DNA of 64,000 nt from an uncultured Gammaproteobacteria bacterium (GTDB taxonomy: Bacteria > Patescibacteriota > Microgenomatia > UBA10105 > UBA927). Positions 1,660 to 29,500 of this stretch are shown here, one piece after another. The notes beneath the pieces were generated by a model, which was not told the DNA's origin, ran no database searches, and saw nothing but the letters and a program-made list of their open reading frames with translations. Location: contig CAYSEV010000001.1 of NCBI GenBank assembly GCA_964430295.1, positions 5,699-69,698 of the forward strand, given 5' to 3'. Position 1 is the stretch's first letter. Every line of letters starts with the position of its first letter. A program made the translations under genes and the position numbers.

Positions 1660-1789
1660 ATGGAGATAAGTAGTCTCACTTTGTCTCTGAGATGGGCTTC
1701 GCGGGACACACTTCGAACTTTTCCAATGCTGTTTTAATAATACATGTGGCAGTGCCACGCGTAGTCCCGATGTCTATCGGGACGAAGTG

Positions 1790-1860: not shown

Positions 1861-1876
1861 GATATCCAAAAGATGT

Positions 1877-1927
1877 GTCGCGTCAAACGCGACTACCTTC
1901 TCAAACGCGAAAACCGCGTTTGACGCG
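1877..1927 (-). promoter_or_regulatory. Structured spacer between the two tRNA-Ala genes. A 13-bp inverted repeat (cgcgtcaaacgcg at 1879-1891 and cgcgtttgacgcg at 1915-1927) encloses two perfect hairpins: GTCGCG-tcaaa-CGCGAC (1877-1893) and CAAACGCG-aaaac-CGCGTTTG (1902-1922).
   Basis: The complementarity can be read directly. On the transcribed (minus) strand the hairpins lie between the two tRNAs, and a short U-run (CUUUUGG) follows the second. The element could be a processing or anti-termination structure, or a weak terminator. Confidence 0.4.
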
Positions 1928-1928
1928 G

Positions 1929-1999
1929 TGGACCCGAGGGGAATTGAACCCCTTTCTACTCCATGCCATGGAGTTATACTACCGGTGTACTACGGGCCC
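1929..1999 (-). tRNA. tRNA-Ala, anticodon GGC.
   Basis: Reverse complement: GGGCCCGTAGTACACCGGTAGTATAACTCCATGGCATGGAGTAGAAAGGGGTTCAATTCCCCTCGGGTCCA. It has the same acceptor stem as the other tRNA, with G3:U70, D-stem GTAC/GTAT, anticodon stem ACTCC/GGAGT with loop ATGGCAT (U33, anticodon GGC, A37), T-stem AGGGG/CCCCT with T-loop TTCAATT, and discriminator A. Confidence 0.8.
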
Positions 2000-5500: not shown

Positions 5501-8500
5501 GGCTGTAGTAAATATGCGATGACACAGGCGTTTCTTGAAACAGGAGGGGCATATGGGGCCACATTGAAGGATGTTGACGTGCAGTATGCTTCCTATTTGG
5601 AATCAAAGTACGGTGCAGCGTCAGGTTCAGGTTCGTCTGGAATGGACCCTGCTGCTGAAAAATTAGCGAACGAGATATTAAATGCTCAAACAGCAGCCGC
5701 CAGAAACGCAATTATTGCAAATGCGGTTACTAACTGTGTTGCAAATGGTGGAGATAGGATTGCCTGTTCGAATGATATTCAGGGTTTTGCAAATAACGTG
5801 TTATATAGAGATAAAATTCTGGACGTAATGATCTCGGGTGATGCAGCAGCAAAGCAAAAATTGTGCCTTGAAATAAATCCGGGATCTTCGGGGAGTCGTG
5901 ATAATAATCCATGTTCACCTGAAAAAATAAATATAACCCTTTCATCAACATTGTCTGATTCCGATCCACTAAAGGTGCAGATCCGCTATGTGGAAGTTTC
6001 CACAGATGACGCAGCCCTTCGTCGTGTTTGTCCGACGTGTTTCAATAAAGACGGTACAGTGAACCAGACAGAAAAAAATAAATACCTTACAAAAATTACC
6101 ACTGCTGCAGGCTTAACAACAGAACAGGTTAAATCCCTCGAAACACAGGCTGCCGCTGTGCAAAACTACGAAACCGCCCTTAAGAAATCAGGACTTACGG
6201 AAGAACAGTTTAAAGCACAACAGGAAGCAGCTATGGCATACATGGCAGATAAGCTATCTGCAGGAAGTTATGCAGCATATGCACAGCAGGTAGCAAGCGG
6301 TGCCATACTCGCCACAGATGTTCAGAAAATGATAGAAAATGTGAACTCCTCCTGTGGAAAATTCCTTGGCATTAATTGGAAGGGCGGGTCAGACGGGTGT
6401 GCTGCAGCGAAGGATACGCTCATGTTGAATGCGTACAGCGACCAGGCAAAGGCGGAAATATTTGCCGGATATGATACATCCAACGCGTATAAGGATTACC
6501 TAAAATCGAAAGGACTTACACTGCAAACAGATTCGGAAGCAACCAAAGAACAGTTCTATCTGGATTCCATGAAAGCACTTGCAGACAACCATCAGTACAT
6601 GGTGAATGCAGATATATTGCGAGAAGGACAGAATGAAGCGGCGATTTTTGATCAAACCGCACGCGGGCAATTTGCAGCAATCACTTTGGATAAAGCTGTT
6701 GATGCCAATTTATCTCCAATGGGGCAATTCGGAATAACGGTTTACAAAGCAGTCGAATTCCTGAATCCTCAGACATGGACCGGCGGCGGGTATCATAACG
6801 ACGCGATAAATGCACAGTTCCTGCAGCAGCAGATGATAAACAACAATCCAACTGAGTATAAAACTATTCTGGATGGGTACTTAACTGATCCAGACTATCT
6901 AAAGGCAAAGAAAGACTATGAAACAAAAAATCCGGGTAAAACTCTAAGTACGCAGGAATATCAAAAAGACCTGCTGACGCAAGGTATGGCTATGGAGCGT
7001 GATGCGGAGCGAAGGGGTTTCCTCTGGCTGGATGTTACCGGAGATCGGTTGGATCTTGGAAAACCTGCCATGAATATGATCGCCGATGATTCCAAGTGGC
7101 TGGAGCAGGGGATTCTTCTTGGAAAAGTTAATCCAAACACGCTCAATACGGGTCTTGATACGATTAAGAACAATACTTCATTATCGGATGAAGCCAAAAA
7201 ACAACAGGCACAACAACTCGTCGGTGATATGTTTACATCTGCACTCGTACCGCAACAGTTGTCGGCATTAGACACAAGTGATGCATACAAAAATTACCTC
7301 ACTGCGAACAAACTAACAGATACGGAGGCTTCCCGAAAAGATTTCGTTGCCCAAAATGTGAAATCGTACATGGATTGTAAAGGATCATCATGGTATCAGA
7401 ACAGTTGTGATGATTATGCAAAAGTAAATGGAGAACAGTACACACTGGCTCAGGCTGTAACAGGTACAAAAGACTTTACCGGTATTAATAATGCGGTGGA
7501 GGGCTTACGAGATATGGGGGCAGGTACTTCCTTGTTGGTTAAGGTAAATTCCATGACGGGTGGAGATATGTCGAAAGGAAACGCAGAATCACTTGCTGCA
7601 ATGAATGAATTAACCGAGCGAAACCCAGTTCTGAAGAATTCAAAGTTCCTGCAGGGAGTTGCCAACGTCGTGTTACCGATTTATGAAGGTGCAACAAACC
7701 CCTTCAATTTACGTGGTATGGCAACCAACGCTGTCTTGGACGCAGTCGGTGTTCCAAACACATTTGATTCCAGAGGATGGGCATATTTTGAAAATCAGTA
7801 TCAGGGAAATGCCACAAAGGCATATATAAAACCCGCTGCGGCTGTATCCGTATTGGCTGCGCCGTTTGTAGCTCCTGCATTTAGTATCGTTGCGACACCA
7901 TTGGCATTAACTCAAACCACAATTAATTCTTACTTCATGCTCAACAGTTTCGGCAATATGAACAAAGCCTGTGTATCGGGATCGTTAACAAAAGAATGTG
8001 CTATGGCAGCAGGCAACAGTGCACTTATGACCGCATTTACATTCGGTGGCGCGATAATGGGAGACTATGCAACAGGTCAAAAACTTGCACAGGGAGAACA
8101 GGTATTAAACGCATCTCAGATGGCCAAACCGGGATACATAGAATCAGCAAAGGAATTGGCTACTAATTTTGTAAAGGCAGATGCAAACGGCGCATACACA
8201 GCCGCAGCCGCATCACAGCAGGCAGTGGGAAGAGCTGCTGCCGGATTCTTCACCTATCAGGCTATCGATACATGTAAAGCCAGTCCATGGTCAACTGAAT
8301 GTATAACATCAATCGGTATGGCCGGGTTAACAATCCCTGGTGCCTTAGGTATTCAGGGACTGGGAAGCTTTAAAGTGACCGAAGGGCTTAGTGCAGATAT
8401 AGGATTCACTGCACTCAATGCTGTTCAAATCGCTGAAGGGTGTATCAATCCAGATAAACGTTCGATGGACGCGTGTATCGCAGGACTTGGATTTACAGTA

Positions 8501-11500
8501 TTGGGACTTCATGAAACGCCGGTGACCGGAGGCGCAAATGCTGTAGAGGCAAAGCCTGAAGATCTGATCCCGCCCCCCGATGCATATGAACTTGCGAAAA
8601 CCAAGTATCTGGAAATGGTTGACGGCAACGGATTGCCTAAAAAAGGATTTACCGCGGAACAGGTAAAAACAGCAGAGACGGAGCTTAGAACTGCGTTGAC
8701 TCAAGAGGCGCAGAGGGTGGCGGCAAAGCAGCTTGCCGAAGAGTCTGTGGCAAATAAGTATGTGACGGCTGAACCTGCCAAGCCAGGTTTTATTGAATCT
8801 GTGAAGTCTCTCTTTACCAAGAAAACGTTTGTGGAAACATCCATTCAGTCAGATCTAGCCAAAGCAGCAGAGACAATGAAAGAAGCTGAAGCCAAGTACT
8901 TGGAAGCCAAAAAAGAAGCGGCAAAAACAGATACGACAAAAACACCGGAAGAACGGGCGGCTGACCTGCAAACGGCAAAGGAAGCATACGAAAAAGCGTA
9001 TGTTGACCTTGCAGGTAAAAACACACTGGCTATTCAGGAAAAATCTATTTACGATGGACCATCATTGGTTAAAAGAGTTACGGATTCAGTATTGGATCTT
9101 TTCAAAGGTAATCAGACTGAACGAAGCACGTTACAAAAAATGCAAGAGGAGGCTGCAAAGTTGGCCCGTGAATATCAGGCAGCGGATCCTGCCGCTAAAG
9201 AACAGCTGCATAATGACTATATTGAACAACTAGGCAACGTCCAAAAAGCACAGCAGGCATTAGACATCAGCAGACTTTCACCTGTGCAACAGGAGTTATA
9301 TAAGAAGATGGCTGCCGAAAAGCAGACGATTACGGATTTGCAAAAAAAGCTTGTCACAGAAGTTGCCTATAATGCGGAAAACACCACGCGTATTCAGGAG
9401 TTGGCTACGGAAATTGCCCAGCATAAGGTCACTCTCGCAAAAGCAGCGGCCGAAATGGCGATAGCAAAATCATTCGGTGGGCGGATCGCCGAACTGTTTG
9501 GGCAAACACAGTGGATCACTAATCGAGCGGCTCAGCAAACAGGTGCAGCACAAACGGAAGAAGCAAAGAAGAAACAGGAATTTAAAGCGTCACAGGCGGA
9601 AATTGAAAGCGCTCGAGATATCGTCAAACAGTATACAGAAGGGTTAAAAGCTGATAATCCGAGAGTATTGGAAATGCAGCGTGGACTCAATAAAGGTAGT
9701 GCAGAATTTACGAAAATACTGGAAGCAGAACGAACGGGTCTCACACCTGAGCAGGAAGCGACATGGAAGAAATCCATTATAGAAAATCAGGCAGAGCGTG
9801 ATGCATTGGCAGCCGGTGATCGCACTGCCGTTGAAAAAGCTATCTCTGATCGTTTTGAAGCACTCAAAGAGATCGAAGGTTTGACAGATTTAGAGAAATC
9901 GTACATTGAAAAACTAAGATCTTTGGAGGAACAAATAAGAAATAAAACAGTCGATACAAATCAGCTGATAAATGAGTTCAATAGAGCCCAAAAAGTTACC
10001 GAGTACAATAAGACACTTACAGATCTGCAAAAATCAATAGAAGCGCGATTGAAAGGTCCAGAGAATCTGCAACAAAGAGCTTCAGATTTGTTGAAAATCG
10101 TAAAAACTCTAAAACAAGTTGATTTGCTTGTAGATGTGCATACAGCAATCGGAGAAGGTAAGCCAGGTAAGGCTGCTTCTCTATTGCAGACAAAAGAATG
10201 GTCAATTCCCAAGGATATGGAGGGATTTACAGAACCCGGAATGAGCGAACAGTTTGAGTTTATCGTGCGCGATGTTGAGCATAGGCTTGCCGTTGATGAA
10301 GGTGGATTCAGAAGTCAGAGAGGCAATCAGGCAGATACAGTCCTCAAACTTATGCAGACGGACAGAATCGCCGTAGAGTTGACAACGAACGGAGTTAAAA
10401 CGACCATGGTAGGTTCAACAATCCTCAGAATGGAACTTGAGGTGTTTGAAAGGACTCCTGTGTTCGTAGCGAAAAAAGGCCAAACAGATGCTGTAAGAGA
10501 TATTATTAAAAAGTTAGTTCCAGAAGGGACAGATATTCAAATTGTTAAAGCAAGTGATTTAAATGGCACAGCAGGTGACGGTCGTGCTACTGCAATTGCG
10601 AATGCAGATATACTAATTATAGAACCGCATGAGGGAAACTTTATTCGCAATGCAAGCTTGGGCAAAGGTGAAAACGGCGCCAATATAGATGCAGCGACTA
10701 GAGTTTACAACAAGCTGACAAACGATGTTGCACTGTATGTTGATGAACTTCATCTGAATCTGGATATCAGCCAGCAGGGTATTAACCCGGTCGGCAATGA
10801 CTCCGCTCCGATTACAAAAGCACAGGCTGCGATAGCAAAAAGGACGGGAGACATTCTCAAAGACATGCAATTAATTGTCGAAAAGAACTTTGCGGAATGG
10901 GGTAAATACAATGGAAAAGACGGACTACTTCGGACAACAACACAGGCAGATGGAACGATCGTTTCCGATCCACGATTCTCAAGAGAAGTCGTAACTGAAT
11001 TCCTAAAGAGAATAGGCGAGTCTGAACGAATTCCGCAGGATATTATTGATACTATCCGCGACAGAGCTAGTGAATTTAAGAACCTATCGGAAAACGAAGT
11101 AGGAGTAAAACTGAAAGAACTGTTAGGAGAAAAAGCCTCAAGCAGTACTGTTGCCTCGTTAAGTGAGCAGGGCATAAAGGTGCTTGATTATATTGATTCT
11201 CTGAATACATTTGCCAATGGTATGGCGAGAACGTATGGTTCTGATTATCAGTACGCTATTGATGATGTAATCGCAAAGCAAAACGGAGGAGTTGAACGAA
11301 AGAGTGCCGTTCCTGCTTCAGGAGGAGATTTGAGTAAAGGCCAGGCGTTTGACTCAAAGATGATGCCTGCCATGGAATATCTAGCAGCGACAGCTGTGGG
11401 TGAGACCCCGAATTTTGAGGGGCTTAAGGCTACGCCAGAAAGTGCCTATAAATCCAGTGTTGCTGACTGGATGGGAGATCTTTCAAATGGGAGTGCTATC

Positions 11501-14500
11501 CGTGCAGTCACCGGCAATATGGCTGATGCAAAGGGTGTCGTTGAGACGGTCATGAGTCTCAAGACTGAATACTCTCCTGAAGCGGAATATAAGATATTTG
11601 GCTCACCAGACGGGTCAGTTGTAGGTCAACTAGCTAAGGAGCGATCATTTATCGTACGTAGTGACGCAGAGGCATCCAAGATGCTTTCCAAACTTATCGA
11701 GTCTAAACTGCTTGATACAACGATGGGTAATACTTCCAATGGCAATCTAAAAATTACTTTAGCCCACAAAGGCGCATGGGATCCGATTAAATTATTCCAG
11801 GATCAGGTATTAAGTAGGACTCAGGGAAATGATCCTGTATTAACCAATAAAACTGTACACGTGGCAGTTGGAGAAGGAAAGTTTGCGGAATTGCGAATCA
11901 ACGCGGAAGGAAGACTAGAAGGACTGGATGCGTCAGGAAAACCGACCGGCACGATTCGTACGACCGCAGAGGTTGAAAATATCTTTAAGAGCGGTAATGC
12001 AAAAGATACGATCGTTGTCATTGATGAAGGTGGTCACACAGGAACGACCATTCTTACTGAAAATGTGCCTGGTATTACTGTTGGCAACAGTAAAATTACG
12101 CTCGGAGACCTTATTCAAGGTGTGAGTCGAGGTAATCGAGGAAACAGTTTATCTGATCAATACCTTATTTATATAGACGAAGCTGCTCCAGTTATCGACT
12201 TTACTAAACCTGGGCGCGAAGTTGTCGACTCAACAAAGATGACGGATGAACAGTTTGCAAAAGTGCATGAAAATGCTCAGAGAGAACAGGTAGTAGCTGA
12301 AAAGTTAAAGACAACAAACGCTCTGAATCTAGCTGTGGAAGCGGCGAGTAAGCGGCCAATATCCGATGCTATTCGGGCACTTCGCAATGCAAACACTTCG
12401 AATGATCCTGTGTTAAAGAATTTGGCGGACTGGATGTCTGACACGCTTTTGGATTTTGGTACCAGATCAAAGAATCGTGATTTGAGACTTGAACAGGGTG
12501 AAGCCCAAACAACACTCGAAGCCCGACAGGAAATGATACAGCGGGAAGCGGCAAAGTGGGATGCATTCCTGAAAGATCCGGCTAATGCGTCTCAATTGAA
12601 AGCCCTCAAGGAAATTCTGCCTGACATAGTTGCACGTATGGAGGAAAACCGTGATGTGTTTGCCAACGGTGCAAAATTGTCCTATGCCGAGAATCCTGAG
12701 CCGATGTGGAAGACGCTGGCACGTCCTGAATTCAAAGAGACATGGGATGCTATGGTGAAGAAAATTCCGGAATTGGCAAACTTTGATCCGGCGGGCACTA
12801 CATGGAATGCACTCTTTGAGCCGGCAAATCGAGTCTTACTTGATAAAGTACGGGTAGATTTCCCGGAAGAATTTAAGCGATTCGGTTCCAATGAACCATC
12901 TAAAGATCCGGTATTGTTCGCCAAAGATCTGAAGGAATTAGTGTTGCGTCATGAAAGCTCTATTAAAGCTGATCAGGAAAGTAAGTATACAGCTAAAGAT
13001 TCTAAGGTGGATGTCAAAGATTACGTAAATGTGGCAGAACACCTGAGTACCAGCCAGAAGATTGGTGTCACGGTATTGGATGCGTTGGGTAATATGTTAC
13101 CGGGAAGTCTCGGCCTTCCGTTCCAAAACTGGTCAGCATCTATTAAGTATGGTGTACGCCAGACGGCAGCAGAAAAGTTACGTGAGGAACAGGATGCCGC
13201 TGCCTCAACCATTCCTGTGCCAAATTACAGCACAACTCAAAGTAGAGCTGCACTGATCGATGCGGCAAAGAAGCCGGATGCAACGGTTGTGGATAAAGCC
13301 CTCGGGCTTATTGCATTGGCTAAACAATACCAAGCAGCAAAAGATAATTTAGATAAAGCAGTCAACCCTGTCCGTGGAGTAGAAATAAAAGCAGGAGATA
13401 AACTTGGTAGTTCTATTCAACCTAACGCGGCTATTAAGGTCGAAGATTGGCGCATTATACGTGTAGATTCATCCGGAAATGTAACTTCTGTTGATCCGCT
13501 TATCGGCGCGACTATTAAGGATGGAGATATAATTATCAGTAATGTAGAATATGAAGCGAAAAAAGATAAACTCATCGGAAATAATCTTGAGACAGCAAAG
13601 AAAGTTGATGGAGTTGTCTATAGTATCGTTCCAACGATTGCTACAGTGATCAGAGTTGGTAAAGCAGATGCATTACCTGTTACTACCGTATCGAATAACT
13701 CATCAGAGGCTCTGTTTGCTGCCAATAAAGCGAAAGAAGAATTCCAGGCTCAGCTAGAAGTAGCAGAGAAAGATATCGCCCTGCGAATTGCAAATGAGTA
13801 TGGAATTATTGTGGCTAATGTTCCATCAGAACATCAGAACACAGTATCAACAGCGCTTCAGGATATAGCCGTGTATGAGGCACAGGTGATTTCTGCAGTC
13901 GCAATTGATCGTACTGTTGATGTAAATACTGTGCCTGAAGTTAAAACCGCGAAAACTGATGCAATTGCTTCACTGGACGCGTTGAAAACCGTCCTTTCGG
14001 ATGCGGATAAAGCAATACTACAGGGCAAAACATCTGAGCAGATTATAGAATCTCTTACATCGGCTGTGATTGCAAAAGCCAGAACAGCTTTGACTCCTAC
14101 AACGACAAAGACAACCGCGACGATACAGAGTGGATCATGGTTTACCAATGCTATAAAGAACAGTTGGAACTGGGCTCGCAGTCCTGAAAATATGGGTGCC
14201 CGCATCTTTAAGACTGTCGTCGTCATTAGTGCCTATATGCTTGCCGCTGGCGTTGCAATCTGGGTGGTCGGAAGTGTTATCGGATGGGCAGCCCCATTGA
14301 TTGGATCCCTATTTGCAGGAAGCACAGCAACAGGAGCCGCGGCAGCAACTGGGGCAGCGGCAACAACCACCACGGCTGCGGCTGCAACTACGGGTTCATC
14401 AGGATTGCTTGGATGGTTGATAACGACCAATCCGTTGCTCAACGTATTTAAGATCATGTTTGCGCTCTCATTCCTTGTTATGAGCTATTACAACATTATA

Positions 14501-17500
14501 AGTCCTGCTTCGCTTCGTAAAAATGAAGATGCAGTAGGTAAATTTGCCAGAACATACATATTTGCACCAAACCCGTTCAATCAAACATTATCACGAGGTC
14601 AAAAATGGGCATCAGCTCCAATGTTTATCGGCAGATATGTTGTTATAGCCGGTAGTCCACTGATGTGGCCGTTGGCTGTAATGGATATGGCAAATATATG
14701 GAATGAATATAGACTTTCACACGGTCAACCCACGTGGACGCAGCAACCGAATGCTCCGGAATGGTTAAAAAATGGAATGCGCAATGCAGTACAGCCGGAT
14801 GCTCTATATGGAGAAAATATCGAAAAGGGGAATGGGAGTAGATGGGGTGCGGTAGTCCATTTTGCAGCAGGGTTATCCGGTGCATTCATGCATGCAGTCT
14901 GGGGACCGGTTGCAATGCCATTTATGGCATATGATGTACTGACTGCATCAGCATCGAGATATCCACAGAGCAAAATTGTTGGATATCTAAAAGATGGGTT
15001 ATTCCCGGCTCCATGGAAGTCAGGACAGACAGGCATTCTCAATATTGGCTATTACGTAGCAACGCGTTGGCTACTATTTACTAATCCATTTACAGCACCG
15101 ATTGGAATACCTGTTCTTATTCATGATGCCTTCAGATTTTTAAATGATTTTGTAAATCAGGAAGTTGCCGGACAAATCCGACAACCAAATATAGATGCTG
15201 CAATTGCGTATACACAAGCCGAATTAGATAAGCAGGTTGCATTATATGAAAAGACTAAGTCTGATTTGGAAGCCGCTAAGAAATCGTACGCAGATTTGGT
15301 GGAAAAATCGAACAGTGGTAAGGCACGTGCAAAGGAGCTGCAAGAATTGATTCGAAAAGCCAGAATCTCTCTCTCTGCATCTGAAGCTAGATTGACACAA
15401 TCAACTGAGAGGCTGAATCAAGCAAAAAATACTGTAAATGCATTGAATCAACAAAAGACTCAAAAAACGTCGAAACAGGATCTGCAAACCGGATACGGTC
15501 TAGTCTCTGTTGCCTCCACTGAACTTATCGGTCGTGATTCTTCTCTCGGAAATATTCAAGGAAGCAGAGTATCGCGCAGACACGCATTAGTGTATCGGGA
15601 TCGTGCCACAAATGTGCTGGGAATCTCTGATTATAACTCAAGCAACGGGACATATGTAAATGGAGAACTGCTATCAGGCTATCTGGAACTGCAATTAGGA
15701 GATATTGTTACACTCGGTAAATTACGAGAACCTGAAAGTGCTGTATTGACGGTAAAATTACTTAATGGAGTGTTGGAGTTAGTAGATAGTCATGGAAAAA
15801 CAGTCAAAGGTAAGGCTATTAGTGCTCCGCCAGTAACTTCTGCATCAGATGCAGTAGTAAAATCAACAGTTTCTAGAAAGACTCCACTTGAAACCATATC
15901 AACTGGAGAAGCTAACTCTTTGAAAAACAGAATAACTATATCTGGCGATGAATTTAGAGGGAAAAAACTTACGGTAAATGAATTATATAAACAAAAACTA
16001 CAGCCTAAATACAGTATTCAAATTGACGGAACACAATATTACCTATCCGATTTATATGACATAGGTCAAGGCAGGCTGGCAGGCGTTGTCTATGTAGAAA
16101 TTGACGGTGTGTTTCACGCAAGATCATTCTATAGAAGTAATTCTTCAGCTGTATGGCGCTATTTGCCGGGATACGCTTCTGATGATGATGAAATTACCTG
16201 GTATTCGAAGGCATATGGTGAGGAAGGTATTAACGCTCCAATTACACTACAACAAGCATTAAGTAGATTACAACAGGACGGATCTCTAGTTCGCCCTGCT
16301 GACGATCAATTTATATTTGCTGGCCTTGCCCAAAGGCGAAGAGTCTCATCGACCTGGCTCATTAATATGAGGGAACAACCGGAAATGCTGAATATATCAT
16401 ACTCACGAAAAGATGCAGATAAACTTGCTGATCCGGAAAGTATGAAGTTCACAAATCCTGATGATGCTCCGGATTTTGGATCATTCCTAACAAGTTGGGA
16501 AGAGGACACTGCTCTATACGGAAAGATTACAAAAGATGCATTTTTATCTAAAAATAAAAAATATACATATGTCTTTTATCGCGATGAAGAGGGTAGAGCA
16601 GGCATAGCTTTTGTAGAAAATCAATCAGAAATTGTATCTCAGGGTATACGCCAACAAGCAGTTATAATTGGTGATTTAGCAACGCCTATATTTGAATATG
16701 ATTCACAAGCAGGCGGATATGGAAATGCCAAAATTCGCAGAGGACATTATGTGGATATGTATGCGAACTACCTAAGTAAAATACCAGTGATTCAGGAATA
16801 CCAATCATTCGTGAAACAAGGTGTCCGAAAAATAGCAAAGGTAGAGTCAATAACAGCAGAAGAAGCTGATCGTTTGTCAGAAGAAATTAGAAATGCATCT
16901 ACCGCAATGGAAGATGCACGAAGAGTTACGGTTTCTGATGCGAAACAGGTTACGCAATACAGAGAACAACTAGCGGTACTCCTCAATGAATTGGAATTGT
17001 TGGTTTCACAGGAAGGAGATGTTAAAGCTTCTTACGATGCCATCGTTTCGGGTAACGATGAAATTAAAAAAATTCAGGAAAAGATTGATCATTTGGAAAC
17101 AAAACTGGAAGCCCTTACAAACTGGAATCAGGCGAAGAAAAATCTTCTTGCTGCAAAACCACAAGCACAAATTGAGTGGATTGACCTGTTAACTGCACCG
17201 ACAGAAGAAATCATCCGAAGTATGAATAAGATGATTACACAATCGGCATCTGTGCCATCAAGCTCTCAGGTATTGGAAGCCTTGAGAGATAAGGATAATG
17301 ATGGAAAATCCGGCATAGAGCGAGTATCAGCGGCCGGAGGATACGTTGCTGTTTACACTGCACTTCAAAGCGCAAAAGCGTCAAATAGACAGGCCGATAT
17401 AGATATTGTTATGACAACACTTCGCACTGCTGCCGCAGAGCGATTGGAAAAAATAACCGGAAAAGCTATCGATCTGAACTCAAAAGAAGGGAAACGGATG

Positions 17501-20500
17501 ATAGAGGAGGCAATTTCCTATGAGCTTTCAATGTTTGCAGGAGAAAAACAATCAACAAAAGTGACCGATGCCACGGCTCCAAATAAAATAACTGCGGCAA
17601 TCAGTAAGTTCTGGCACAGTTTGCCACGTCCAGGGAAAATATTTGCCAGCCTTGGCCTGGGCATAGTCACGGTGTCTCTTATCACCACAATGCTTTCATC
17701 AACCGGATCCAGAGCTCCGCCTGTAGATACAGCACCACCTCAGACTCAAGTTGTACAGATGGTAGAACAGTCTCCGGTCCAGGCATTAGACCAGGTATAT
17801 CAGGAATCAGATCAACAATATGTATACACACAGGTAGCACAGGCTCCACAAGCTTCAGATCATGCATCGTCTCCACCCGTGATTACAAATACAAATCAAC
17901 AAGGAGGATTGACCGCTCAACAGCAGGACCAACTCATAAATGTGTCGATGGAGTTTGTAACAGATTCAGGAAGTGAGACAACACAGAGATCAGCGGAACT
18001 TCTGGGATTAAAACAACAGGATGGCAGTGTGATATGTGGTCCACTAAGTGCAACAATACTGCAAAAAGCCGGTTTATTGGATGCATCTGTTGATCCAATC
18101 GATTTCTATCAGGCAAATGACTGGACAAGCCAAGAATCCAAAGTAGGTACACTCTGGTATCTGCAAAAAACGTTCCCGACAGATAAATATGATTGGGTTG
18201 AATCACAACAATCGATTGGGGAGTATGATTTCAAGGCAAATCCACTACAGCCGGGAGATCTGCTCTATTTGAAAGGTGGAAACTTCACTCATTGGATCAC
18301 CATTTCACGCGTAGATAGTAGGGGTAGAGTATATGCAGTAACGAATATACAAAAAGGATTTATTACAGGTAATCCAAATGATTCCGAATGGCTTATACAA
18401 GAAGTGTTAGTGTATGATCCTGCAAACCCGCAGCTTGGACAGTTTGCAAAATGGACAGGGAATGATTATCCACAACTTGGAAAAACAGGGCTGAAAGGAT
18501 TCAGGCTTTGGAGGGCAAAGGGAACTACACAGGCACCAGTCAGTAGTACAAATACGGGGTCAAATACAACAACACAACAATCTCAGTCTACAAATTCAAA
18601 TGCCGCTACAAACAACAATAACCGTGTATCGGATTATTCCGCTTATAGTGTAAGGGCAGATGCTGCAATCAACGCAGTGCCATATGAAGGAATTCCTCAG
18701 GCTCGCTATGATCAAATGTTGGCGGATGGTGTTCTTTCAGATGATGAAGTGCGTGAAATGTATGAAATGTACTATAAGCCAATGCCTGCAGAATTTGTAT
18801 CTACAGGCACATTATACGGACCGCTCGCTAACGCAATCGGTGAATTGCATTGGTATGGAAATGCAATGCGCCAACAAATGGCCAGAGGGTTTGTACTTTT
18901 TGGCAATAATTCATATGGATATAGAGAAGATTTGGCAGATGAGCTGAAAAATTATGATGGTCCGTATGGGTCAACTCTCGGTGATAGGACAAATATATTA
19001 TTACAAAATCAGGCATCACCTCTTTATACTGTTCTTGCTGATCGGGTACGTACACCGGATAATCAGCCGGTTCCGTTGGAGTATAACGATCTCAACGAAC
19101 GACAGAAGTTAATCTACGACATGACCTCAATGGGACAGGATGAAACTGCAAAGAAATACTTCGTGAGTATAGAAGAACAGTCACAAATGACACCTGAAGA
19201 AGCATTGGCATCAGGCAAGTTTATAGGAATTGTATCATCCAAATCTCCAAATGACTTTGGTCGAAGATATATGCTGTGGAAATATGACGAAACCACAAAA
19301 CAAAAGAAATTTATTGGAATCGTCGTAGTCGCAGGTGAAGCAAAGCGTGGAGATTGGGTTCCGGATCAATCAGGTGATCCAACTTTTAATACGTATCCGC
19401 TTGGTCTTCGGGTGCAAAACGGGCAATCATGGGGATTTGATTTGACGACAAATGTGTACGAAGCGTTTGGTGGGACAGGGGGTCCAGTGTTTGATATCGT
19501 TGCAGTTGACCCTGACGGTCCGCTTACGACTAGAATGGAGCGTGTTGCAACAACAGAAAGTGTACAACCAACGTCATTAGCTCAGCCGTCAACATCAGGT
19601 CAAACATCTAATACATCTGCGCCACAATCGGCAACTGTACAGCAGACATCTCAGGTTGCTACACCTGGTCAGACATATGAAGTCGCATACGATACGTCAG
19701 TCCCCGAGAAGTATACAGTAGGAGCCTCAACCGCAAGGAGTGAGGCGGCTCCAAATGGCGGCATCCTTCTTACAGATCATGACCAGTGGTTGCCGATTGC
19801 TGAAAGTGATATTCCTGCATCTGCACAACTGCGTAATCCGCAGAGTTATATAAATACCATCAGATATTTCCACGTCACAGAATCTATACGATACAAAGCT
19901 GCAAGTAATACCACATACTGCAATATATTTGTATCGGATGTCACACGTGCCATGGGAGTAGAGATTCCGAAGTGGATTAATGGTGAAGGAACGTATGCGA
20001 ATTTCTTGTATGACTGGCTGGCAAATCCAAGCGAAGGCGGCAAAGCAGGATGGGTAGAAGTAAGCGCACAAGATGCGCAGGCATGGGCGGATAAAGGATA
20101 CCCTGTCGTGGCCTCCGCCCAATTTGAAGGGCACGGTCATATTGCTATGGTTATACCCGGGACGCCGGCGGACGGATTTATCCACAACGGTGAATATTAT
20201 CCAAACAGTGCGCAGGCAGGGCGGATAAATTTTGAAGGAAAGAGCACATATGAAGGATTCCATAGAGGATTGGAGCAAAATCAAGGACATCCTATCAAAT
20301 ACTTTGTGAACACGGGCAAAACTGTAAATATATACAAATCTGCTGCCGGTATCATCCCGATCGGGCTGGTTGGACTATGGGAAAAAGCAAAACAGGGAAT
20401 GGGCTTAACCAAACATACGGGTAATCCGGAAGATGAAGAAGTTGTAGAGACTGCCGGACCACAGGGTGCAGATGCAAAACTCGAAGAATCCATTACGGCA

Positions 20501-23500
20501 TATCTGGATGCGCACGATCCGGAAGGGTATACGCGTATATATGATTATTCCAATGCCCCAGAAGGAAATAGAAAACATCTGATTGCACAGTATATCATCG
20601 ACAAATTGTATGAGCAGGTACAGACTGATTCAAATGAACGCGGGGTATTTGCATCGGCAATGGGCGCATCAGGAGGCAATATACAGCCACGTATAACCGT
20701 TATAATTGACGATGTTAATAACATAAAAGAAGGTGCAGCGATAACAGTCAGGTATAGTGACGGTTCTGAAGTAAAAAGCAAAATAGTTCAGAAAATACCG
20801 GGTAAATCTACAGGTCAAGATTATTGGTTAATAAACAGTAAAGACGAACTATTTGCAGTGCCGACAATAGCCATACTGACGAGAGCAGCGGCAGATGCGC
20901 AACGAGACAATAAATCAGCAACAAATCAGCAGGGCACATCAGGTTCAAATGCAGTGAAGACTGAATCGGACGCAGTTAACAAAGCAAATGCTGATGTTCT
21001 GGCAGCCAAAAGTGAGTTTGAGAAAGCACACCAGGAATCTGAAAAGGCACGTATTGCAGCTGAATCTGTAACAACTTCCACAGTAGATCCGCAACTTCTC
21101 AAGGTCGCTCAGACGAATATGGCTGATGCACTTGGTGAGCTGAAAGTTGCAGAAGCAGATCTGACACAAAATAGAGAAATGGCTGATCATTACAGACAAA
21201 AACTTGAGCAGTTGAGAATACAACAAACGCTTCAAGAGCACACAACCGACGAAATGGCTATATTATCTCTCGGTTCTCCAATTACAAGAACTGATACCAC
21301 ATATGTCGTTGATGATGAATCATATGACGAATCATACGCTATTGAAGCCCAAGATGGTGAGTTTTTTGGAGAATTTGGAGCATCAGTTCGTGAAATTATC
21401 GGCATAGGCTCACCGAAGAAATTTGGTGCTATTGAAGTCTGGCTATTTGATAAAAATGATATAAAAACAAAAACAATTTTCCTTGTATCGGAGTATGCAT
21501 TTAACGATCCTGAAATCCGTTCACGATTAGAACAACTGGGAGAAGTAGTGCAGATTCAGACTGGTCCAACGGGCATATCCGTCATACGAACAAAAGATTT
21601 ACAGTTACACATATTTGTAAAGGATTTCGTGTACAGCAAAGGTGGGCCACAGGCAGATGTAAGCACGTTTGATAGAGTAACAGTTCAGTTAGAAGCATAT
21701 GCGAATGACGTTTCCACATTTGCAGGTCCTGTGGATATGCCCCAAATCGAAAAAGACATACTGGAAGCACAACAGCAATATACTGCATGGTCTGAAAAAG
21801 CGCGTCTTTCTCAAGAGGATGTCGCAAGACGCCTGGCGGCATACACAGAAGCGAAAAGGATTCTTAAGCAACTGGAAGAATCAGCAGAAACCGTTGCAGA
21901 TATGGCTGCATACGAATCAGCAAAAACCCGGGAAAATGAGGCAAAAGCACGCTTTGAAAAAGCACAATCTCATGCAGATGTATTGGCTGACTGGCAGAAA
22001 GCAAAAAATGAAATGCATGTGCTTAATCCAAAAGCGACCGTTGAACCGATAGATCTAAATACCGCAGATGATGGGGCTATAGTTGCTAATACTGCGCTGA
22101 TGCGTGCTGTTGAGCCTGTTATAGTGGCCGAGGCATCAACGCTTTATGACATGGATATCAAGAGAATCGGGCGTGTAAAGGTCGCTCTTCTATGGATTGA
22201 ATTCCTCAAAAAGTATCCAAACCAGATAACGACAGAACATAGAGTTCGCCTGTATCAGGGACTTGTAGCCGCACAAAAAGGACTTGCTGCAAAAGATGAT
22301 CTGATTTCAGCAGCGGATAAGACACTCATCGAAGAAGTACTTGCAAATGACGTTATCATACGCATTCGTGACGGATTTGGTGTCGGATCTACGCCGATCA
22401 ACACGCCGATGATGAAGACATTTGCATTGGATCTCATGGCATATGAGCAATCCGTTTTTGAAACCGGAAAACTAAATACAGATACAGAGAAAAAACTGAA
22501 AAAGCAAATAGCAGATATACTAGACAGTAAGTCGACAATTTCTGACAGTCTTCTTGCTACACTACCGAGCCGTGATCCAGAAGTGATTTGGAAGAAGATT
22601 ACAGACGGATTATTTAATGCAGCAATAGCAAATGGATCAACAAATGGGAATAAAAACCAGAATAACCCTGCTGCGAATACTTCATCAGTAACACCTGCAT
22701 CTGGAACATCAGGACAATCTACATGGCTATCAAGGCTGTGGGACAGGTCATCAAATTGGGTAAAATCCGGGAGTAATTTGGGCGAAAAGATCTTTAGAGG
22801 AATAGTTGTTGGTTCTATTTGGGTCACAGCTGCTGTAGCTTCAGCTTTTCTGATTACAGTTGTCTTTAATTCTGTTATGTTGTTGATCCCATGGTATGCC
22901 GGGTTGATCAGTTCTGCACACGTTTCATATTCATTGCTTGCATGGATAATTCCATCATTATTCATGCTCTCTGGATTATTGAATTTATCTGCGCCTCCGA
23001 TTATGCCACCAACGAATGCATCAGTTGTAGCGAGAGTGTGGCATGCTGTTCGCAATCCGTATCCTTGGCAGAACGGATTAACAAAAGAACAAAAACCTTA
23101 TGTATGGGGTGCCTTTGTTGGGAGATATGTGTTGGCAGGGATAATTAACCCAATGGAAATAGGCATGGGTCTTGTTGACCTAACAAACGGCATAAATCAC
23201 ATGGTGCGCCCTGCGATTGCACCTCAAACAGTTGAACCCAATAATACTGCTGTTGAACCGTCAGCATTCAGAAAATGGATCAATAAACCAACTTCACCTG
23301 CATTTTTGTCTAAAACAATACGATTCCTTGTTAATCCGCGATTTAGAGCAGATGACCCAGAGAAGCGGACAGGGAGTAGCTGGGGATACGTTCCCCATGG
23401 TGTAGGATTGCTAGGTATTTTCAGAGTATTCCAGACACCGATGGCTGCAACAATCGCGATTCCATTTGTGGCCCATGATGTCTATAACCTGCTGCGCAAC

Positions 23501-26500
23501 GACAAACCGACAGGCTTTTGGGCTACTGTTGGTGACTATTTCCTTTTCCCGACATTCTGGCAAAAGAATACGATGACAACAGGTCAGAGGTGGTTATCTT
23601 TTGCAGGCTGGGTTGTCTCTAGAGGATTCCTCCTATTAAATCCGACTACGCCATATTTTGGATATACTTTGATAGCTCAGGATATACTTCGTATGACAAA
23701 TGATTTCCTTGCTGCCAAGTGGGCATTCCAAGGGAAAGATCTGACTGTAGCACCCACCACAACAGGAGCCGGTGCACCACCACCAAAAGAAGAAGATCTG
23801 ACAGTGTCAGGTAAAAAGACAATTGGCAAACAGGATGTACAGACCAATAGTAAACTCCTTGCCATTGTGACGAATGCTGAGAACAAAGGATTGAAAGTTA
23901 TTGAGTACACAGTAAAGGCAAAAGACGCAGGCGTAAAAGATCAACGAATATGGGTGGTAGAGGGTGCAGGCGTAACCCCAATAACCAACGAATATATCAT
24001 AAAACTGGCAGCACAGCGAAATAGCATCACCGCCAAAGCCGGGTTCCCCGGACCAGGAAAATATGTTGATGCATTGTCACAAGAAGCTATTACTCAGGGG
24101 ACTGCAGAGTTATCTGCGGTTGGAGATAGGCAGATAGTGCAGGAAGAAGCAGCAATATCATCAATGAGTGATGGAAGCAAACTCGGTATTCACTATGCTG
24201 CAGATGTTGCACAATACACAGATGAAAATCTACATATACCAGATAATGAGTTACTTGATCTTAGTATTGTTGTTCATGCGAAAGACCAAACAGGTGTCTT
24301 GGCACTTCTTGGAAATGTGTACGGTGGTCAGTGGATGAGTAAAAATGACTATTTTGCAAAATGGGCAAAAGAAGAAGGAATCGTTACCCCATTACCAAAA
24401 AATATCGTTACGTATAAAGCATTTATAACATGGTATGAGACACAGGCAGTGTTTACCAGTGGCGCATATTCATCACAAAATGGCAAACTGTTTGTAAATG
24501 GTACTCCAACACAGCAGGTTATTGCACCGGATGGCAAACCGATCACAGATCTGTATAAATTCCGCCATCTTCAAGGTGATTTTTATATGATCAGTGCAGA
24601 GAATGCGCATGGAATCTTCAAGATTAATGGAACAAAAGCAGAGTTGATTGTGGCAGCGCACAACAATAATTTCCACGATGATGTGACACAAGCCGGATGG
24701 ATTACATTTGACAAAGAAGTAGATGTGAAACAGGCAAGTGTACTTCCATATGTAGATGGCAGTGCACTCTTTAACGCGCAAACAGGCAATCATGTTCAGA
24801 TCAGCTCTCTGAAGAATTTTGAACGAACAGGGGCATATATGCTCAAGAGCGAAACGATTGATCCGAGTGAACGATATGTTGTATTTATCCAGAGCAATAA
24901 TAAGGATGCAACCGCAAAAATCGGTATTATCGATCTACAGAATTTGGATGCAGGAATTGTGTATTCTGGTCAACTTACCGGCCATGTATCAGATATAGAA
25001 TTTATCGATGGAAACACCATTGCGGTGTCTGAATACGGAAAAGAAAAGGGAAGAATAGATCTATCTGCCACGTTGGGTGGCAATAAAACAATACTTCCTG
25101 GTGTTGTAAAACCAGTATCAGCACCGAATGTATACGATTCAGAAGGGCGAAATATTAAAGTGGGCGATACCATAGAGTACAAAGATAATAGCGGAGCGAA
25201 GAAGGCTGTGGTACAGGGCTTTACAAAAACTGGCCAAATCATCTTCATGGAGCTTAATAGCACAGATGGGAATAAAGCGAAGATTGCTCAGGGAGATATA
25301 GTAGCAAGAGGTGTGAAGGTTGTGTCTCCAGATTCCTCTTCTCCAAGACCTCAGCCAATTCCTGCTGTTGGAGTTAAACAAAAATTGACCACAAAAGGAA
25401 AGATTACTCCAGGAAAAGATACACTTCAGGTATATGCGGAGAATAAATCGACTAATAGTAATGTAGATACCTCAAAAGCCCGTGTCAGTTGGAATGTGCC
25501 TTCTACGCTTGCCAATATAACATATGGCTACGCAGTAACGAATAACCGTGGCGGAATATTTGTGAACGGAGAGCTTCAAACAGGAATAAATAACCCTATT
25601 CAAAAAAAGAGTGAATTCAAAAAAACAAGTCTAACATTCGGTACTGCAACTCCAAGTGACACACGGCCTGTTTTGGATGTCTATGCAGTATTTGAAGATG
25701 GGGATATGCGCTACTATGTACCGCTATCTGAACTGGAAAATGCTGAGCTTGCAGTGCCAATAGGACCGACGAAAACAGTAGATCAAATTATTCAAGAATT
25801 GGATGCAATTTTAGCTACAACCGTATCCGAAGAAAATTTGGAAATAATGCAACAAAGTGGAGAAGCGGCATCCGATCTTATATCCCAGCTTACAGAGAAT
25901 GGATTTTATTGGGTAGAAAGTCAAAGAGATATCGTGACTTTGAATGCAACGAGAGAAAAATTAATTAAACTTAAACCATACTTCCAAAAAACTAAAAGAC
26001 TGGAAGATTTTAATACTATGATCGCAGCTATTGATGGGCTTTTAGAACTTGCTAAAGCATCACCTCAGGAAGTGCGGAATGCTGAAGCCGTAGCGAAGCT
26101 TCAGGAGGAAATCAATGCCTCCTTTGATGAAATCATCAACAATGGCATCTCTTTGGATTCTATTAATGTATTCAGGATTATAATTGCCCAGACTATAAAA
26201 AATGCCAGAGCCCTTGAAGGATTAACAGAAACTGCATTGAATCATTACAGTAATAATCTGACTGTATTGGAGAAATTACGCGATGTGATCATGAAAATGG
26301 TACCTTCTCTATCCGTGATGAATGAAATTGCTGAGATTCAGGACCTCATAGATCAATTAGACCTTCTTATTGAAGCCGCCAAGAAGACTTCACATACACC
26401 TATTGGCACATCAGAAGCAGAGATTCTAGCAGCACTGCAGAATGTGCAAAAAACAGCGATATCAGAATTTAAGGCAAATAATATAGAAGATATGCAACGG

Positions 26501-29500
26501 GATTTGGCTGATCAACGGGTAGATGTAATGGAATTAGTTATTGCAAGCATCACAATGTATCCGACTGATACAGAATATCTAAAAGAAGTTGCGAAGATAT
26601 TTGATGCATTGAAGCCGGGATATGAACATACCTGGAGCGCTTGGACATATAATGATGTGTATAAAGCATTACATGAAGCGATAGATCATCCAAGTTCATC
26701 ACCAACTATACCGAGTGGATTTAAAATTGCGCAGTATCTGGGTCAACAGCAACAGCAATTATTAGCTCAGCTTGGATTGCTTGGTGATGTCAGTATTCTT
26801 CCCGTAGGTGGTAAAACAGTACAAAATGCGTTAGCTGCTGCAACAAACACAACAGAAGCATTTGTTCAGTTAGCAGAGAGAATATTTAATGAACACCAGG
26901 CAAATAGAACATTGTTAACTGCTTTATCTGAATCTATAGCTTCAGTTAACCCTGCATTTAATCTGGTCTGGCGATGGAATGCCCTGATTCGAATACAGGA
27001 GGAAATAGATAGGTTGTTAAAACAGCCTGTACAGCCAACTGGGGCAATTACATATGAAGTCTCTAAACAGCGTATGTCAGCACCACTTGAGAGTGCTTCT
27101 GACTTGAAAGCCGGCGATTATTTCCAAAGAAAAGTAAAGAGCGGTTGGGAATCATTCCAATTAAAGCAAAGCGCAGATGGATCGTACTATACGGTTGAAT
27201 TCAAACCTGATGGGACTATTAAGCGCATAAAGGCTGTCTCTGATCCAACATCATGGGGTTTTGTCAAAGAAAATTATCGACGGTTTGATCCTATACAAAT
27301 AATGACGACGGCAAAGAACATGTTAACTGATTTATATACATATGGTGAAGCATATGATGCGAATAACGCTGAAATAGTCAAAACAGTACTTGAAGAAATT
27401 AAAGAAATGCTTGGAGGAGAGGCTACTCTCGAACCGATGAAGACACAAATCGGCATATTGGAGGCAGTGATAGCCGGCGGACGCCCGACAAAAACGACGA
27501 CTCCGCCTATATTGATAGCTACGGTTGAAGAAGCAACGAAACAATTAAATGAACTCTTCTTAGATGGAGCATCGTATCTTCCTGCTAATGTTGGAAGAGT
27601 CAAAGCCTCTGTTGATTCTATTCGGACTGCGCTTGCAAATACACCAGTCTCACAAACTGTAACAGATCAGTTGTTGGCACTGGATACGGTTATTCAACGA
27701 AATCTGCCTGCGGAAGAAAAACCTGTAATTGATCCAAATTTGCACGCTCGACCACAGACAGAACAAGGTATAACTCAACCTGTTCTGGATCCGGCTAAGC
27801 AGCCACAGGAAGCCCAAATGGCAAAAACGCAGGTATTTACTACTCAAAATACGCAAATTGCAGTCAATGAAGGAAGTCAACAAGGTAATAAACTAATAAA
27901 CTCCTATGGGACACCAGAATTATTCCTCGCAGTAGATCAAAAGGATTTGAACTCATACAATCCATCTCAATACACAGGATTACGAGTCCAATTGAAGTGG
28001 GATACGCCAAAATTAGCAGGAAAATTGGCTAAATTTGGTCGCGCTACCGTTCTGGCAGAAGGTAAAGGACAAAACGGAGATTTTGCTAGCAGATATGCAA
28101 TCGGAAGGTTCTATGAATTATTCTATGGTCTTAATGGTCAAGTGTTTGCTGAGAATGTAACAGATGTACCATCCAGAATTCGTCAAATTATTTCCCAGAT
28201 AGATATCGAACTTGCATATATAAATAAACAACACAATACACAGGCAGAAACGACGTTGTCAGTGGCCTTAGAATTCAATGGAAAACTATTCACTGCCTGG
28301 GTTGGAAATTCTAGTATCTACGTAACACGCAATGGAAGCATACACCTGTTAAGTGCTCCAAATGATATGGTTTTGGGAAGTTCAGTGGAAGGGCGAGACA
28401 CAGAATTTATCCATACAAGCGATACATTAGCTGCGGATTTGAAAACAAAAGCCCAAAGGGCTAGAAACAACGGATATCCACTGGCAGCAATTGTTGAAGA
28501 CTGGGCAAATAGTGTAGATACCGCTGTGAACCTTCAACAAGGTGACCAGATTGCTCTTATGACGTATGGAGTAGATGATTTGAACGTAGCACAAAATGCT
28601 ACCGCAGTAGATCCAATTGCATCATTAATCAACGGATTAACAGGTCAAAAGCCTGCTGAAGCTGTCATTGATAGGGCTATTTCAGAAGCTGCTATTCGAA
28701 ACGTGCAAACGCCTCCAATGACAACAATCATATATACAGTAGGTACTTCGGAAAGTGTACAGCCAGTTGCCGTCAAGTCTCTTACAACACTCAGGCAAGA
28801 GCGGGATGCTGAAGTGGATCAAATAATTCAGAACATAGAAAAAGGAGAGGTTTCCCCAGATGCAGATGCCATAATTTCCGATTTGAAATCACGACTGTCT
28901 GAACGCATTGTTCTTCCTGTTGTACAGCAAAACAGAATACGAGCGGCAGCAGCACGTAAGAAGGCTTCCAATGAACGAGAACAGGCATGGAAAGCAGTAT
29001 TATCAACAGATTTGACGGCAGCTGTGACTGATCTGACACAGGCAGGAATTGAGGATTTCTGGGCAAATGCATATGAAGCACTGGGTACAGCAGGTCGGAT
29101 ATTCCCTGAGGTTGAAGTAGCGCCAGAGGAAAGCGCCCAAAAAACAGCACAACCGGTTACAGTCGTTGAGATACGGGATATTATCCAAAAAACATCGCTC
29201 AAAGAACTGCGCAGACAACGGGATGAAGTACTCATTCCGGCTGCAATCAAGTCACTTGCAAATGGGAAATATACCGCGGGTGTAGGCAACATCATCAAAT
29301 CAATTGAAGAAAAGCTAGGCGGCAAAGTAACGGTCACTCGGGCTCAACGTGCAAAACTAAATGGAGCAGCGGCTCGTGGTGAAGCGATCTGGGCATATGA
29401 GAATTTGCTTACACAAGCGTCTCACTGGAGAGGGGCTCCGACAATAGAGATTGCAAACGCAACTATCCAGCAAATCAGATCTGCCATAAAGCAACTCGAG

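Follow-up and report, generated by a model that had tools for sequence, protein, structure and literature searches.

The window analysed here is a stretch of 64,000 nucleotides of contig CAYSEV010000001.1, to which all positions below refer, and approximately 61 kb of it (2582-63478) is filled by two adjacent giant open reading frames (ORFs), g1 and g2. This report concerns two hydrophobic regions of g1, M1 and M2, which an original prediction made from the DNA letters had described as a duplicated transmembrane (TM) supermodule with a conserved tail motif on the cytoplasmic side. The results showed that M1 and M2 are in-frame paralogues within one ORF and thus represent a genuine internal duplication.

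Duplication and anatomy of the membrane module

When the two segments of the original prediction (residues 3857-4200 for M1 and 6713-7053 for M2, both in the frame of g1) were compared by BLASTP with composition-based statistics, 91 of 361 aligned positions were identical (25%, with 42% positives) at an E value of 6e-19. The starts of the segments are separated by 8,570 nt, in agreement with the predicted distance of about 8.5 kb. The Smith-Waterman score of the pair was 213, as compared with an average of 39 for global shuffles (z 29) and, in 500 local shuffles of 10 residues that preserved hydropathy, with 45 on average and 101 at most (z 21); no shuffle of 1,000 scored above 101, and five other TM-containing segments of g1 and g2, used as controls, reached at most 49 against M1 or M2. 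The pairwise alignment thus gave a score above that of random hydrophobic pairs. Chunked self-BLAST connected residues 3726-3909 with 6585-6778 (E 1e-8) and residues 3802-4191 with 6650-7043 (E 3e-18), showing that the predicted location was right and the predicted start was not: the duplicated unit begins approximately 130 residues further upstream and comprises approximately 470 residues. A hidden Markov model (HMM) built from the M1/M2 pair found exactly two copies in g1 and g2 together.

The similarity between M1 and M2 is not evenly distributed. Its bulk lies in the domain following the TM core (post-TM domain; Smith-Waterman score 166, z 18-24), whereas the soluble part preceding the core (pre-TM part) gave z values of 5.5-7, the last 60 residues 7-9.5, and the core alone approximately 4. 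That the core alone barely exceeds shuffles is what could be said for regarding the similarity of the two hydrophobic segments as an artefact of chance or of composition. In view of the z values for the whole segments and for the two parts outside the core, of the distance between 213 and the scores of natural TM controls, and of the E value that stands after composition correction, such an artefact has a negligible probability, and it was rejected on the shuffle and TM-control comparison. The prediction that conservation lies outside the TM helices was thus borne out, but its concentration in the terminal motif was not, since sliding-window alignment showed conserved patches spread across the whole post-TM domain and the amphipathic segment before the core. 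The difference in z between the post-TM domain and the TM core argues for more than a greasy anchor, as the original prediction had also held; nothing supports the gating role that it had suggested along with this.

Each copy of the module consists of three parts, namely a soluble helical part of about 130 residues, a hydrophobic core of 70-100 residues, and a net-basic domain of about 225 residues rich in Trp, Phe and Pro. The pre-TM part carries a net charge of -5 in M1 and -1 in M2. In an AlphaFold2 (AF2) model of M2, calculated with M1 as the sole alignment row, it was helical at a predicted local distance difference test score (pLDDT) of 56-81; the pLDDT of the model was 40.5, and the core was drawn as two long helices at a pLDDT of approximately 30-40. 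A conserved amphipathic segment (W-x-x-N-W...G-x-x-I-F) precedes the core, which in each copy contains a hydrophobic stretch of 39-42 residues and one further segment of TM grade. The TM scans used the Kyte-Doolittle scale and values after the published biological-hydrophobicity scale. The aligned TM columns are 31-53% identical between M1 and M2, the conserved residues within and beside the hydrophobic segments include polar and aromatic ones (H, D, R, N, W), and both immediate flanks of the core are positively charged. The core of M1 includes an Ala/Thr-rich loop that is a gap in M2. Part of this loop is encoded by an imperfect 18-bp tandem repeat (2.4 copies at 14325-14367, found by Tandem Repeats Finder); the loop has apparently grown by local repeat expansion, and its length could be variable between strains.

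Compositionally, the post-TM domain is enriched in Trp, Phe and Pro by factors of 3.7, 2.0 and 1.8 in M1 (net charge +6) and of 3.4, 2.3 and 2.0 in M2 (net charge +9). It is moderately hydrophobic and depleted in Lys, Glu and Asp, and no 220-residue windows in all 14,241 residues of g1 are richer in Trp than those of M1 and M2. Both predicted motifs, F-[IV]-G-R-Y-V and the terminal [HQ]-D-[AI]-x-R-[FM]-x-N-D-F, are present exactly in each copy. Two more patches are common to the copies, GSxWGxVxH (GSRWGAVVH in M1 and GSSWGYVPH in M2) and PFxAxDV (PFMAYDV in M1 and PFVAHDV in M2), and all four motifs are confined to M1 and M2 within g1 and g2. The Trp-rich domain is most likely situated at the interface between membrane and cytoplasm.

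Table. Positions of the module, its parts and the other features in the window.
Feature	Position (nt)	Strand	Residues	Remarks
M1, full duplicated unit	13757..15154	+	3726-4191	Self-BLAST, alignment A1
M2, full duplicated unit	22334..23710	+	6585-7043	Self-BLAST, alignment A1
M1 pre-TM soluble helical part	13757..14149	+	3726-3856	Net charge -5
M1 hydrophobic core	14204..14503	+	3875-3974	39-residue hydrophobic stretch, loop and second TM segment (hydropathy scans)
M1-only Ala/Thr-rich loop insert	14318..14404	+	3913-3941	Gap in M2 in alignment A1
M1 post-TM Trp/Phe/Pro-rich basic domain	14507..15154	+	3976-4191	
FIGRYV of M1	14624-14641	+	4015	Exact motif
Tail HDAFRFLNDF of M1	15122-15151	+	4181	
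M2 hydrophobic core	22790..22993	+	6737-6804	About 70 residues continuously hydrophobic (hydropathy scans)
M2 post-TM Trp/Phe/Pro-rich basic domain	23000..23710	+	6807-7043	
FVGRYV of M2	23114-23131	+	6845	Exact motif
Tail QDILRMTNDF of M2	23678-23707	+	7033	
g1 giant ORF	2582..45307	+		14,241 residues, GTG start, single frame; contains M1 and M2
Putative N-terminal signal-anchor TM	2717..2785	+	46-68	Net-positive 45-residue head before, Pro/Thr-rich stalk after
FHA domain	15527..15718	+	4316-4379	About 125 residues past M1; Pfam PF00498
Only convincing TM between M1 and M2	17627..17710	+	5016-5043	Pro-rich linker after
PP2C-like domain, copy 1	27812..28804	+	8411-8741	Pfam PP2C_2, E 1e-4, below cutoff
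PP2C-like domain, copy 2	29930..30826	+	9117-9415	Paralogue of copy 1
g2 giant ORF	45494..63478	+		5,994 residues
LysM + M23 peptidase gene	574..1659			Upstream of g1
Two tRNA-Ala genes	1789-1999	-		Anticodons CGC and GGC; between M23 peptidase gene and g1

Other recognisable parts of g1 and g2

A single domain in the 14,241 residues of g1 was recognised by Pfam above threshold, i.e. the FHA domain that follows M1 (E 1e-11 / 2e-12; 45.5-47.9 bits against a gathering cutoff of 20.7). Its phosphopeptide-binding signature GR...SRRH...NG is kept as 'IGRD', 'SRRH' and 'SNGT', and the linker that joins it to M1 appeared coiled-coil-like by eye. Between M1 and M2, the TM segment at residues 5016-5043 has a Kyte-Doolittle value of 2.06 and a summed free energy (dG) of approximately -0.2, whereas the dG of all other segments between the modules was above 7. 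At its N-terminus, g1 looks like a protein with a signal anchor of N-in orientation, and a strongly hydrophobic N-terminal segment was present in 24 of 25 fragments of orthologues of g1. In short tblastn matches (L003-L062), the sequence of this segment, GGFVQLLPL...FAAS.F, was 50-62% identical, in comparison with 24-30% for the rest of the protein; this degree of conservation points to a more specific role than that of a generic anchor, for instance in targeting or interaction.

A pair of PP2C-like domains begins approximately 1,400 residues past M2. Copy 1 was matched by PP2C_2 (PF13672) with 22.4 bits, the cutoff being 24, and more weakly by PP2C (PF00481) and SpoIIE; its match to the NCBIfam model Stp1 had an E value of 5.5e-6, far under the cutoff of that model. 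It contains the PP2C-like motif 'AEGKGQNGDFASRY', a degenerate version of the metal-binding motif. Copy 2 gave no Pfam match by itself, and the two copies were similar to each other in self-BLAST (E 5e-26). The domains probably have a PP2C-like fold and are possibly catalytically dead pseudo-phosphatases. Along with the FHA domain, this pair gives a hint of Ser/Thr phospho-signalling parts within g1.

Several further repeats were observed in the two genes. A second, distinct module with a TM cluster is common to residues 13015-13381 of g1 (41624-42724) and 473-802 of g2 (46910-47899), with 22% identity and an E value of 2e-8, and further similarities connect residues 12829-12965 of g1 with 3221-3360 of g2 and residues 13225-13368 of g1 with 2088-2236 of g2. 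These shared segments suggest that modules have been exchanged between the two giant genes. Directly after the N-terminal anchor, residues 85-729 of g1 (2834-4768) are made up of tandem repeats of about 156 residues, of which the units at 238-399 and 394-562 are 51% identical (E 2e-44). Being far better conserved than M1 and M2, these repeats would be much younger or homogenised. Internal repeats of g2 connect residues 4156-4261 (57959-58276) with 4886-4998 (60149-60487; 51% identity, E 2e-31) and residues 942-1054 with 4326-4438 (33% identity, E 3e-15). The only enzyme-like signal in g2 was a sub-threshold alpha/beta-hydrolase/lipase-like match at residues 1843-1931 (51020-51286; LIDHydrolase E 7.5e-5, Lipase_3 E 1.4e-3). 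No SecA_DEAD, SecA preprotein-binding, TSP3/dockerin, peptidase C39/S8 or carbohydrate-active domain was found in g1 or g2 by Pfam scans.

Host lineage and relatives of the module

The host belongs to a Gottesmanbacteria lineage of the Patescibacteria, or candidate phyla radiation (CPR). Orthologues of the M23 peptidase encoded upstream of g1 were 60-85% identical in metagenome-assembled genomes (MAGs) labelled Candidatus Gottesmanbacteria, Microgenomates or Patescibacteria, and the records include chromosomes or contigs of approximately 1.0-1.2 Mb. The locus also occurs in many third-party annotation (TPA) records that bear the title 'uncultured Gammaproteobacteria bacterium', and in one that bears the title 'uncultured Rikenella sp.', the names being probably placeholders or errors. 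An exact-sequence index had no entry for the M23 peptidase. CPR bacteria, whose genomes measure about 1 Mb, presumably live attached to hosts, and in a genome of this size g1 and g2 would take up roughly 5-6%. A phage or plasmid origin was rejected, since the profile of the module matched nothing among phages and plasmids. No paper combining Gottesmanbacteria with giant genes was found in the literature searched.

We examined 80 related loci (L001-L080), each with flanks of 10 kb around the M23 peptidase gene. In at least 28 of them, the peptidase is followed by an open frame of 1,500 residues or more that runs off the flank. These frames are orthologues of g1, and their identity to it in tblastn was 24-50%, as compared with 75-85% for the neighbouring peptidase; the closest relatives by peptidase were L001 and L002 (85% identical). 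Judged from these sequences, the giant gene is a conserved, syntenic and fast-evolving feature of the Gottesmanbacteria lineage.

Three metagenome loci that reach 10 kb further, L081, L082 and L083, were retrieved with a family profile built on the conserved stretch before M1 (alignment A2). At the position expected for M1, L081 and L082 have a region of about 470 residues containing a strong TM cluster and a Trp-rich (5.6-fold), Phe/Pro-rich and acid-poor domain with a net charge of +16. As M1 and M2 do in g1, the region of L081 forms the most Trp-rich window of its protein, and downstream of it stand a linker and an FHA domain which are collinear with those of g1 (27% identity over 187 columns, E 4e-6). 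As compared with M1 and M2, the TM cluster and the Trp-rich domain seem to be in the opposite order. The fragments show one such region each but end at the edge of the locus, and a second module could follow further downstream. The region thus behaves like a positional and compositional counterpart of M1, with no significant sequence similarity to M1/M2; a case for homology from a collinear chain of motifs (HDVY/WDVY, LFPxxW/IFPxxW, WVVSR/WLISR and QDILRMxND/YDFQRFxDE) failed three objective tests and was rejected as evidence, being retained as a lead, and a loosened tail pattern that matched L081 was set aside as evidence because it had been defined after L081 had been seen. Since a Trp-rich membrane region stands before the collinear linker and FHA domain in L081 and L082, the arrangement of Trp-rich membrane module, coiled coil and FHA domain is probably older than the lineage of the window.

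L083 (metagenome contig Ga0172371_10002251, 11470-13271) has neither the module nor the FHA domain. Its conserved upstream region is followed by approximately 600 soluble residues and then by a homologue of the g1 part that comprises a soluble domain, the TM segment 5016-5043 and the Pro-rich linker, and there are two TM segments in its 4,070 residues. The cassette of module and FHA domain is thus present in some lineages and absent from others, an observation at odds with the simplest topology model.

With M1 and M2 extended to residues 3726-4273 and 6585-7139, there was no match in Pfam-A or NCBIfam even at E values up to 1. The best E value of the sequence profile against the PDB was 2.3, and no similarity to any transporter or channel family was found in Pfam, NCBIfam or the PDB. 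Foldseek with the M2 model gave a best E value of 1.2 and TM scores of at most 0.15, the fold comparison being uninformative at the pLDDT of this model. The M1/M2 profile found nothing in a word-indexed database of 5.8 billion proteins, where giant proteins are seemingly absent or lost by the prefilter, nor in an exhaustive HMMER search of 1.84 billion representatives, from which they seem to be missing; it had no match in GTDB genomes, JGI metagenomes, IMG/VR, phages or plasmids. Protein-database queries that included conserved parts, and even exact pieces of giant ORFs taken from GenBank MAGs (UBA6580, nzgw408), also remained empty, despite orthologues in GTDB genomes. Thus, since even such exact pieces return nothing, the absence of homologues of giant proteins from the protein databases is uninformative. 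On the sequence comparisons made, the module belongs to no described family.

Topology and possible role of the module

We tentatively favour, with somewhat less than even confidence, the interpretation that M1 and M2 are lineage-restricted, fast-evolving modules for membrane crossing and juxtamembrane coupling which lead the chain from outside to inside by an odd number of crossings. Each module would be a topogenic crossing point at which the chain, coming from an extracellular megadomain, re-enters the cytoplasm, and its conserved juxtamembrane domain would couple what is embedded in the membrane to the next, cytoplasmic segment. Past M1, this segment would comprise the coiled-coil-like linker and the phosphothreonine-binding FHA domain, and after M2 a long segment with the two degenerate PP2C-like domains. 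In the resulting alternating model, residues 69-3874 would be outside, M1 would cross the membrane, residues 4192-5015 with the FHA domain would be inside, the TM segment 5016-5043 would cross again, residues 5044-6736 would be outside, and M2 would return the chain to the inside, where residues 7044-10900 with the PP2C-like domains would reside. The membrane side, the number of crossings and the coupling or signalling role of the modules are all what we infer from the observations that follow.

The charge asymmetry has the same sign in both copies, the pre-TM parts being negative and the post-TM domains positive, which fits the positive-inside rule and the same orientation of M1 and M2. If the orientation is indeed shared, and with only one convincing TM segment between the copies, the number of membrane crossings must be odd for each module. 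The N-in look of the N-terminal anchor of g1 and the arrangement in L081 and L082 also count in favour. In bacteria, those FHA domains that have been characterised (GarA/OdhI, FhaA, FipA, SctD/YscD, EssC and TagH) act in the cytoplasm, and the PP2C family is cytoplasmic in characterised bacterial proteins. The cytoplasmic-side tail of the original prediction is thus plausible from the net charge of the post-TM domains and from the FHA domain after M1, but it is contested by the orthologue L083.

L083 is also among several observations that weigh against odd crossings or against the assignments on which the model is built. If M1 crossed an odd number of times, the region around TM 5016-5043 would lie on opposite sides of the membrane in g1 and in its L083 homologue, a conflict that an even-crossing, neutral M1 would avoid. 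A borderline hydrophobic, Ala/Pro/Val-rich segment of g1 at residues 1746-1778 (7817-7915), located just upstream of the region homologous to L062 (residues 1758-2295), is matched by a hydrophobic segment at the corresponding place of L062. Approximately 7 of 25 orthologue fragments contain hydrophobic segments in the middle of the protein, with stretches of 36-49 residues in several orthologues (among L003, L026, L059, L006 and L045). The segment at 1746-1778 may be a real TM segment or a hairpin, changing the parity upstream of M1. The hydrophobic core itself could, on the hydropathy scans and the AF2 model, consist of two or of three helices, and the polarity of the post-TM segments is too high for the hydrophobicity scans to call them TM. 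Comparison of M1/M2 with the L081/L082 region gave an hhalign probability of 0.3, Smith-Waterman z values of at most 1.6, and an empirical p of about 0.2-0.3 with an HMM of the sub-domain run against decoys. Finally, the PP2C assignment is sub-threshold and applies to copy 1 alone (22.4 bits), and the metal-binding motif is degenerate in both copies (AEGKGQ in copy 1 and THGLGQ in copy 2, as compared with ADGxGG).

Part of this evidence would be accommodated if the modules were topologically neutral staples, i.e. helical hairpins that cross the membrane an even number of times, carry an interfacial Trp-rich domain, tether an otherwise uninterrupted part of the giant protein to the membrane with no change of side, and are gained or lost freely. 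L083, which keeps the TM 5016-5043 region and just two TM segments without M1 and the FHA domain, is consistent with this, as are the two long helices of the AF2 core (modelled at low confidence), the positive charges on both immediate flanks of the core, and the length of the first hydrophobic stretch, which at 39-42 residues is over that of one TM helix and under that of two full ones. Yet with one strong TM segment between them, even-crossing copies would face opposite sides of the membrane, although they have the same charge asymmetry, and either the FHA domain or the PP2C-like domains would then be extracellular, contrary to what is known of these families. We consider this explanation rather unlikely. 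A different view is that the duplication records past shuffling of modules or fusion of genes among paralogous giants, with a function in anchoring only and with patches that reflect constraints on folding or insertion. The segments shared by g1 and g2 (13015-13381 with 473-802, and 12829-12965 with 3221-3360), the variable content of the orthologues, and the extremely fast divergence of the giant genes relative to the peptidase all speak for shuffling. It does not explain why non-hydrophobic motifs stayed invariant while the copies diverged to 25% identity, nor why the Trp-rich basic composition was kept in a distant relative, findings that argue for selection beyond insertion; we therefore regard this view as less likely still.

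M1 and M2 could also pair in cis in the manner of transporter halves, forming one pseudo-symmetric conduit or signal transducer. They are homologous polytopic modules that apparently have the same orientation in one polypeptide, polar and aromatic residues are conserved in and beside their hydrophobic segments, and their conservation exceeds what a simple anchor needs. Against this stand the lack of similarity to transporter or channel families in Pfam, NCBIfam or the PDB, the 2,500 residues that separate the copies, and the finding of one region in the L081 and L082 fragments, which end at the locus edge, and of none in L083, so that the available sequence shows no conserved need for a pair. 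Such pairing is in our opinion very improbable. The favoured interpretation of M1 and M2 as odd-crossing coupling modules can be carried further, to a Trp-rich basic module that is an unrecognised, rapidly evolving coupling domain of the Gottesmanbacteria giants and, in a single polypeptide of 14,241 residues that passes through the membrane several times, wires extracellular megadomains, engaged in host or prey contact, directly to cytoplasmic phospho-threonine parts (FHA, PP2C-like), M1 and M2 being two signal-transmitting crossings that are possibly paired in cis. In this extended form the proposal is speculative and improbable.

Giant multi-TM proteins have been documented in Omnitrophota (West-Roberts et al. 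2023, bioRxiv 10.1101/2023.11.21.568195; bioRxiv 10.64898/2026.06.07.730766). Like these, g1 is a single ORF of more than 10,000 residues in an ultra-small, probably host-dependent bacterium, and it shares with them many TM segments, very low Pfam coverage, fast-diverging domains and an ambiguous topology. Their descriptions set them apart from g1 and g2, which belong to a different phylum and have no SecA_DEAD, C39/S8 or carbohydrate-active domains, and the neighbour of g1 is a LysM-M23 peptidase gene instead of type II secretion genes. In the absence of the hallmark domains from g1 and g2, the gene is not a giant of the Omnitrophota ('Archaeovorin'/Dockerin) type. Giant, poorly annotated multi-TM proteins of ultra-small bacteria were known already; g1 represents a variant in a different phylum, with an orphan membrane module that is duplicated. 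Large surface or membrane proteins of up to 4,163 residues, presumed to serve host contact, are also encoded by the CPR bacterium Vampirococcus lugosii (PMC8080830). In both cases, the genome of a CPR episymbiont or predator spends large genes on membrane-localised proteins, but those of V. lugosii are three to four times shorter and have recognisable interaction domains such as WD40 and PKD, whereas g1 has nearly none.

The location of the FHA domain close to TM segments is shared with mycobacterial FhaB/FipA (Rv0019c), SctD/YscD of type III, EssC of type VII and TagH of type VI secretion systems, and the FHA domains of g1 and L081 gave weak NCBIfam/Pfam matches to FhaB_Rv0019c and Yop-YscD_cpl. 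The FHA membrane proteins of this group have one or two plain TM helices, and the likeness of g1 to them is confined to the FHA domain and does not extend to the module; none of them is known to have a Trp-rich basic domain of about 225 residues. With duplicated transporters, such as those of the major facilitator superfamily (6+6 helices) and the TM domain pairs of ATP-binding cassette transporters, g1 shares two homologous multi-helix modules of apparently the same orientation in one polypeptide, but its copies are separated by approximately 2,500 residues and another TM segment and have no similarity to the transporter families.

M1 and M2, together with the adjacent FHA domain, are one of the few handles on the membrane organisation of a dark giant gene: the module marks where the chain meets the bilayer, and it provides a testable topology model and a conserved domain that is not an anchor. 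If the proposed coupling is wrong, the module would still be a useful annotation marker for this dark gene family, and if it is true, cell-surface megadomains would be linked to Ser/Thr phospho-signalling in an episymbiont.

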